This document shows, in pieces, positions 13,059 through 13,206 of a stretch of DNA of 64,000 nt. The translations under genes were made by a program, and so were the position numbers. The notes beneath the pieces are model-generated. The model was given only the letters and a program-made list of their open reading frames with translations, made no database searches and had not been told where the DNA came from. Every line of letters starts with the position of its first letter. Within the stretch, counting starts at the first letter, position 1. This DNA comes from Escherichia coli. GTDB taxonomy: Bacteria; Pseudomonadota; Gammaproteobacteria; Enterobacterales; Enterobacteriaceae. The stretch lies in NCBI RefSeq assembly GCF_001677475.2, contig NZ_CP015229.1. One strand, 5' to 3'.

Positions 13059-13206
13059 TAACAGTTCCCATCTGTAGGGGAGGGGCGGGTCAAATCTCTG
13101 CAACCCTGGCTGCTCAGTACCGCCGCCTGACCCTTCTTCACATCGCCGCAGGTTCGAAAACTTTTTTTTGGAAATGTGAACAAACGATTGATAGGTAAGG
13201 CCGATT

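Follow-up and report, generated by a model that had tools for sequence, protein, structure and literature searches.

G-rich blocks in the HNH-TerS gaps of an Escherichia coli prophage and its embedded island as a conserved part of predicted HK97-type cos sites

The two G-rich motifs that lie between the HNH endonuclease gene and the small terminase gene (TerS), one in an E. coli prophage and one in an island embedded in it, are, as judged by homology, a conserved part of an HK97-type cos site, located roughly 42-55 bp upstream of the predicted cut. The setting is a window of 64,000 nucleotides (the whole stretch of E. coli DNA analysed here), and its relevant features are listed in Table 1. 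The cos identity of both gaps, the position of the cuts, and the conservation and rigid spacing of the G-rich block are shown by homology. We further consider it probable that each gap holds a complete HNH-dependent cos site in which the G-block acts as a positioning element on the side of the large terminase (TerL) and HNH, much like lambda cosQ. Cos sites of this sort are themselves known; the modestly novel part is the G-run sub-site, a deeply conserved element at fixed distance from the cut that current HK97 packaging models leave out. The alignment also gives base-level predictions of packaged ends for this prophage family and for a capsid-forming PICI.

Table 1. Packaging features of the prophage and the island in the window. 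Signed positions count from the predicted top-strand cut.
Feature	Coordinates	Strand	Basis or remark
Prophage HNH endonuclease gene	12708..13058	+	ORF list; Pfam HNH, E=1.9e-16
Prophage G-block GGGGAGGGGCGGG	13077..13089	+	-54..-42 from predicted top-strand cut
Prophage C-rich cohesive-end box ACCGCCGCCTGA	13119..13130	+	register with HK97, SfI and phiP27 ends
Prophage putative TerS-binding side, CACATCGCCGCAGGTTCGAAAAC and T8 tract (13162-13169)	13139..13171	+	
Prophage small terminase, P27 family	13207..13689	+	Pfam Terminase_4, E=2.3e-25
Prophage TerL, N-terminal part	13689..14710	+	blastn against intact TerL of vB_EcoM-606R7
Capsid-forming PICI-like island, 15.4 kb	14711..30111	+	inside prophage TerL gene
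Island HNH endonuclease gene	26872..27312	+	Pfam HNH, E=8.8e-10
Island G-block GGGGGTGGGGGAGG	27492..27505	+	-55..-42 from predicted top-strand cut
Island C-rich box ACCGACCGCCTC	27535..27546	+	upstream and downstream registers agree
Island putative TerS-binding side: TTTTT (27553-27557), GTGCACGGTAA, T7 tract (27569-27575)	27553..27576	+	
Island small terminase, P27 family, 118 aa	27601..27957	+	Pfam Terminase_4, E=2e-23
Island large terminase	27941..29602	+	Pfam TerL_ATPase and TerL_nuclease
Prophage TerL, C-terminal part	30112..30855	+	TerL_nuclease profile positions 64-283

Two HNH-TerS gaps and their relatives with defined ends

The prophage gap, from the HNH stop at 13058 to the TerS start at 13207, is 148 nt long and contains GTAGGGGAGGGGCGGGTC (13074-13091, read from the sequence), while the gap upstream of the island TerS start contains AGAGGGGGTGGGGGAGG (27489-27505). 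The initial annotation had singled out a conspicuous G-run in each gap and both are indeed present, with the island coordinates (given as 27487-27503) two bases off. Over the whole window the motif GGGGNGGGG is not enriched (3 occurrences against 2.4 expected). Two of these three matches, however, are + strand occurrences within the short HNH-TerS gaps, a placement whose chance probability we estimate at roughly 1e-5. The third (GGGGTGGGG, 62289-62297) sits within an ORF at 61498-62826, away from any HNH or TerS context, and is probably there by chance.

Both gaps lie just upstream of TerS in a cassette of HNH, TerS and HK97-like TerL, and both share the register of mapped cos sites, with a G-block followed by a C-rich box. 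The same annotation took them for candidate cos regions, a reading borne out by alignment in register with phages whose ends are mapped or annotated (HK97, Shigella SfI and phiP27) and with two phage contigs of 54.9 and 53.4 kb; the alignment supports identifying both gaps as HNH-dependent cos regions of the HK97 type. In all relatives with defined ends, the top-strand cut falls 41-42 nt past the G-block, inside the C-rich box. The HK97 record ends in ...GGGCAGGGGGGGGGATCAAATCTTCAAAACCTTTGCCCCAAATGACCGCCGCCAAA and starts with GTTTGAATTTAACGCTAACCCGATTTTTTT, reading ...GGGGGGGGATCAAATC-N-ACCGCCGCCAAA to the left of the cut and GTTTGAATTT to its right, and its numbering coincides with that of the published HK97 TerS-DNA structure (T16, C:G 21, A:T 24-29). 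For SfI, direct sequencing of virion ends in the SfI paper gave TGCCCGCCCC, which forms the last 10 nt of the SfI record, a record that ends 41 nt after the same G-block as in the prophage. Megablast with the prophage region as query retrieves phiP27, whose annotation places a 10-nt "cos-site" CGCCCGCCCC in the HNH-TerS interval; homology of the prophage to phiP27 stops at about 13127, within the cohesive-end box. The two contigs (54,865 and 53,373 bp) have the predicted +1 as their first base and open with GTCAAATTTT and GTCGAATTTT. Farther afield, the record of Gordonia phage Bunnybear ends 42 nt past GTAGGGGGGCGGGTCA, and in a Streptococcus thermophilus cos phage GACCCCCGCCCC ends 41 nt after GGGGTGG. 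The spacing from G-block to C-box is not universal, since the C-rich stretch of a Staphylococcus phage lies nearer to its G-block.

Transferring these registers to the window, we predict for the prophage a 10-nt 3' overhang at 13121-13130 (CGCCGCCTGA), with nicks between 13130 and 13131 on the top strand and between 13120 and 13121 on the bottom strand. The corresponding prediction for the island is an overhang at 27537-27546 (CGACCGCCTC), with nicks between 27546 and 27547 (top) and between 27536 and 27537 (bottom). Two independent registers concur on the island cut, namely the G-block at -53..-42 and TTTTT at +7..+11. Both cut positions rest on homology. The island prediction is a new detail: the papers on capsid-forming PICIs consulted here give no sequence-level definition of a cos site.

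Some sequence records bear on the predicted ends. The record of vB_KppS-Ant is without about 31 nt to the left and about 38 nt to the right of the predicted island cut, as would be expected if the assembly had lost the ends of a linear molecule, which lends the prediction indirect support. Deposited as a phage (LR881103, "Escherichia phage vB_KppS-Ant", 16,548 bp), the record stems from an induced particle, and its genes are those of a capsid-forming PICI (TerS, TerL, integrase, primase, capsid, protease, portal, connectors and HNH) plus, after TerL, a 766-aa gene annotated as tape measure protein that is absent from the window island. Three IMG/VR contigs from isolate draft genomes (L165, L135 and L013) end within 10 nt of predicted cuts, L165 at -10 of an island-type site; such ends may hint at assembly breaks at packaged linear ends.

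In phage CharmingMan (PP925830) a core of about 25 bp that includes the cohesive-end box (AGGACCGCCGCCTAA) appears inverted, with the G-block and the TerS side unchanged around it and the total spacing maintained (43 nt against 42 nt in mEp235). Either the nicking core is truly inverted or the assembly is at fault; a true inversion would complicate a simple directional model. Five further records were uninformative: Providencia PSTRCR_117lys is circularly permuted and without the core, Klebsiella KLB28 and Dickeya Sucellus have no such gap 5' of TerS, and in Burkholderia vB_RY3 and Lactococcus CHPC836 the HNH gene is interrupted by the record end.

We place the island TerS start at ATG 27601 (not 27602), because the N-terminus MARPPK is conserved and the length of the G-run varies in relatives. 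An in-frame ATG at 27460 would carry the ORF back across the cos site (27460-27957). The variable G-run length among island relatives rules out a coding role for the G-block, and the lack of a start codon at a suitable distance rules out a Shine-Dalgarno role. A look for a terminator or promoter at either G-block turned up neither.

Position and proposed role of the G-block

How general is the G-block? The TerS proteins proved too divergent, in an alignment including HK97 and the island, for that alignment to be used as a search query, and we fetched 80 IMG/VR loci by TerS peptide patterns only, such that the motif played no part in their selection. Dereplication of the upstream sequence left 50 representatives, 48 of which had the anchor and enough flank, and we put these into a gap-free alignment anchored at the downstream motif CCGCGAAA (+16 in phiP27). 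In 35 of the 48 loci the 13-mer richest in G begins at -54 or -53, and in 47 it begins between -57 and -49; G content is 0.69 at -56..-43 against a background of 0.25, and position -46 is an invariant G. The consensus, with the cut as a slash, reads GGG.GGGGG.GGg..AAAagTt ... gACCGCcCcCtca / GtC..aTTTTTACaCCCGCGAAAT. Both window G-blocks are in this register; the island block agrees with GGG.GGGGG.GG at every position and the island also has TTTTT at +7..+11, while the prophage block is followed by TCAAATC (13090-13096) in a register identical to that of HK97. G-blocks are found in Enterobacteria, Moraxella, Pseudomonas, Vibrio, Gordonia and Streptococcus. Since a G-block recurs at the same distance in 47 of 48 loci retrieved by protein, the window motif is not a product of chance, and the fixed distance from the cut identifies the G-run as an upstream cos sub-site rather than a cohesive end.

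We propose that such a cos site would consist of three parts held at fixed spacing: an upstream sub-site formed by the G-block at about -55..-42, the C-rich box at -12..-1 where a staggered cut would leave the 10-nt 3' overhang, and, downstream, a TerS-binding site with an A/T tract. The G-block sits on the last-packaged chromosome end, upstream of the cut at a rigid distance and on the TerS-coding strand. The conserved TerL/HNH side, and not TerS, would read it, and by analogy with lambda cosQ it may help to position or license cleavage in the C-box, most plausibly at termination, when the translocating motor arrives from upstream. A role of lambda cosQ at termination is indicated by the titles of the Cue and Feiss papers cited in PMC11331095.

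The downstream part can be placed by analogy. The minimal HK97 TerS site spans +15..+29 and includes an essential A:T tract (PMC11331095). The T7 tract of the island falls at +23..+29, the same geometry as in the HK97 site (T24-T30), and the surrounding sequence is kept among island relatives. In the prophage the T8 tract is at +32..+39, eight bases farther out, and the block around it is kept in mEp235, CharmingMan, and Morganella and Klebsiella phages (mEp235-type TerS). By this analogy, 13139..13171 and 27553..27576 would be the stretches bound by the respective TerS proteins.

Assigning the G-block to the TerL/HNH side draws on two observations. HK97 gp1 is only about 10% identical to the P27-family TerS proteins, yet HK97 retains both the G-block and the C-box. 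Furthermore, one hybrid locus (L082) resembles phiP27 left of the box and the window right of it, and the cos core looks like a point of recombination between an HNH/G-block module and a TerS module. Mosaic joints fall in the C-box, so that the HNH side brings the G-block along and TerS brings its own site; on this ground, and given the presence of the G-block in phages with unrelated TerS proteins, we attribute it to TerL and HNH.

A broader version of this proposal, which we put forward tentatively and with some doubt, is that the G-block is an essential third sub-site of all HNH-dependent cos systems, a counterpart of cosQ that TerL and/or its HNH partner would read to license cleavage, kept at a distance of 41-42 bp from the cut across Proteobacteria, Actinobacteria and Firmicutes, and missing from current HK97 models. 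Three HK97 packaging papers (PMC11331095, PMC9410871 and PMC10359639) describe the downstream TerS site only and mention no upstream cos element, and no phage paper came up when the literature was searched for G-rich elements of cos sites or for the sequences themselves.

The G-block could alternatively be a second TerS site or a site for a host factor. Specificity is known to reside in TerS, and in HK97 its site was at first bounded only to -80..+472 (PMC11331095). The minimal site nevertheless lies entirely downstream of the cut, and the G-block is common to phages whose TerS proteins are about 10% identical. The host factor IHF has the consensus WATCAANNNNTTR, and by inspection we see no match to it. 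We regard a TerS or host-factor site as unlikely, and keep to a TerL/HNH element.

Quite unlikely, too, is that the G-block works through a non-B structure, either by pairing with the C-box in a hairpin or by forming a G-quadruplex when the DNA is single-stranded or in RNA. Minimum-free-energy folds do pair the two elements, but their energies are no better than those of shuffled sequences (z from +0.2 to -1.1), and across the 48 loci complementarity between G-block and C-box is equal within and between sequences, so that the two do not covary. As for a quadruplex, G-tracts are present, but tracts of three or more number only three in the prophage (GGGG A GGGG C GGG) and two in the island (GGGGG T GGGGG A GG), too few for the canonical four-tract form.

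We give next to no credence to the two remaining readings. The G-run was initially offered as a cos feature, and it does lie within the cos site; being the most conspicuous motif of both gaps, it might be taken for the cohesive end or cleavage site itself, but the predicted cut is 41 nt downstream, and every relative with defined ends is cut 41-42 nt downstream, in the C-rich box. That the block is functionless, compositional or hitch-hiking sequence has parsimony alone in its favor, against a position that is fixed in 47 of 48 loci between variable flanks on both sides, the invariant G, and a span from Enterobacteria to Streptococcus.

The island, its host prophage and the satellite question

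The prophage TerL gene is in two parts, the first encoding the Pfam TerL_ATPase domain and the first 64 positions of TerL_nuclease in a reading frame that continues to a stop at 14882. Intact TerL from vB_EcoM-606R7 matches the window in two segments, 13100-14710 and 30112-31807, with 8 nt of overlap, and this split alignment identifies 14711-30111 as an insertion within the gene, at about codon 338, with the short core TCACGAA at both junctions. A split late gene and a shared junction core are what the concept of a helper-embedded PICI describes (Mageeney et al., PMC10111431). The island genes encode an integrase, Bro-N, an AAA_25 replication protein, capsid, protease, portal, connector, HNH, TerS and TerL, and tail or lysis genes are absent; judged by Pfam and the UMNF18 RefSeq annotation, this gene set, in an element within the 10-18 kb range, is that of a capsid-forming PICI. 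The same nested arrangement of an island in TerL occurs in UMNF18 and many other E. coli genomes.

The surrounding prophage is HK97-like, with genes for lysis, HNH, TerS, TerL, portal, protease, capsid and HK97/lambda-type tails. It is defective, with TerL split by the island and the capsid gene by an IS21 element, and its cos site may therefore be currently unused. The split major capsid gene and its IS21-family insertion together take up 32933-33691, 33780-36031 and 36084-36572, with an IstA-like ORF at 33780-35279 and IstB at 35276-36031. By ORF inspection only, the tail genes downstream of the capsid look intact, and a tails-only prophage would suit a satellite that needs only tails.

With two cos sites in such proximity, it is tempting to suppose that they are shared. 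The initial annotation suggested that similar cos sites would explain why the satellite targets this phage family, and the corresponding mechanism would be that one terminase packages both DNAs. Aligning the two regions shows that the three-part plan is indeed common to them and that the G-blocks are 69% identical in register, but the sequence is otherwise not shared: overall identity in register is 40%, only 4 of 10 positions match in the predicted overhang, and the TerS-binding sides are 30% identical. The packaging proteins have diverged as well (27% identity for TerS, 32% for TerL and 41% for HNH). Given the differences in overhang and TerS site, we expect each terminase to be restricted to its own DNA, in line with published work on capsid-forming PICIs, in which phage and island packaging are independent and mutually exclusive and the island needs only helper tails. 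A shared cos site is thus very unlikely to account for the association, and this tempting explanation falls away. What physically links satellite and phage is that the island is integrated in the TerL gene of the prophage. The two sites are homologous in plan, which reflects a common ancestry of the packaging modules and not a shared target.

Comparison with known packaging systems

HK97 is the closest reference for both cassettes, which share its gene order (HNH-cos-TerS-TerL). Its cos site depends on the HNH protein gp74 and yields a 10-nt 3' overhang. The likeness to the prophage extends over the G-block, TCAAATC at -41..-35 and ACCGCCGCC at -12..-4, all in identical register, whereas the last three overhang bases and the whole TerS-binding side differ. 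The likeness to the island is in the T-tract, at +24..+30 in HK97 and one base nearer the cut in the island. The window TerS proteins, in contrast to gp1, belong to the P27 family, and in HK97 about 320 bp separate the end of the HNH gene from the cut.

The phages phiP27 and SfI/SfV resemble the prophage on the left of the site, where identity across the HNH gene and G-block is about 83% up to the C-box and the cut again comes 41 nt past the G-block. They differ in the overhang, (C/T)GCCCGCCCC rather than the prophage sequence, and their TerS side is unrelated to that of the prophage, which leaves a mosaic joint at cos.

Like the G-block, lambda cosQ precedes the nicking site and belongs to the chromosome end packaged last; the two are analogous in position and proposed role only. 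The spacing of cosQ is shorter than that of the G-block, and lambda differs from the window sites in its 12-nt 5' overhangs and in having no HNH partner. Among satellites, the island resembles the EcCIEDL933-type capsid-forming PICIs in gene set and size, and the helper-embedded PICIs in being seated in a prophage late gene.
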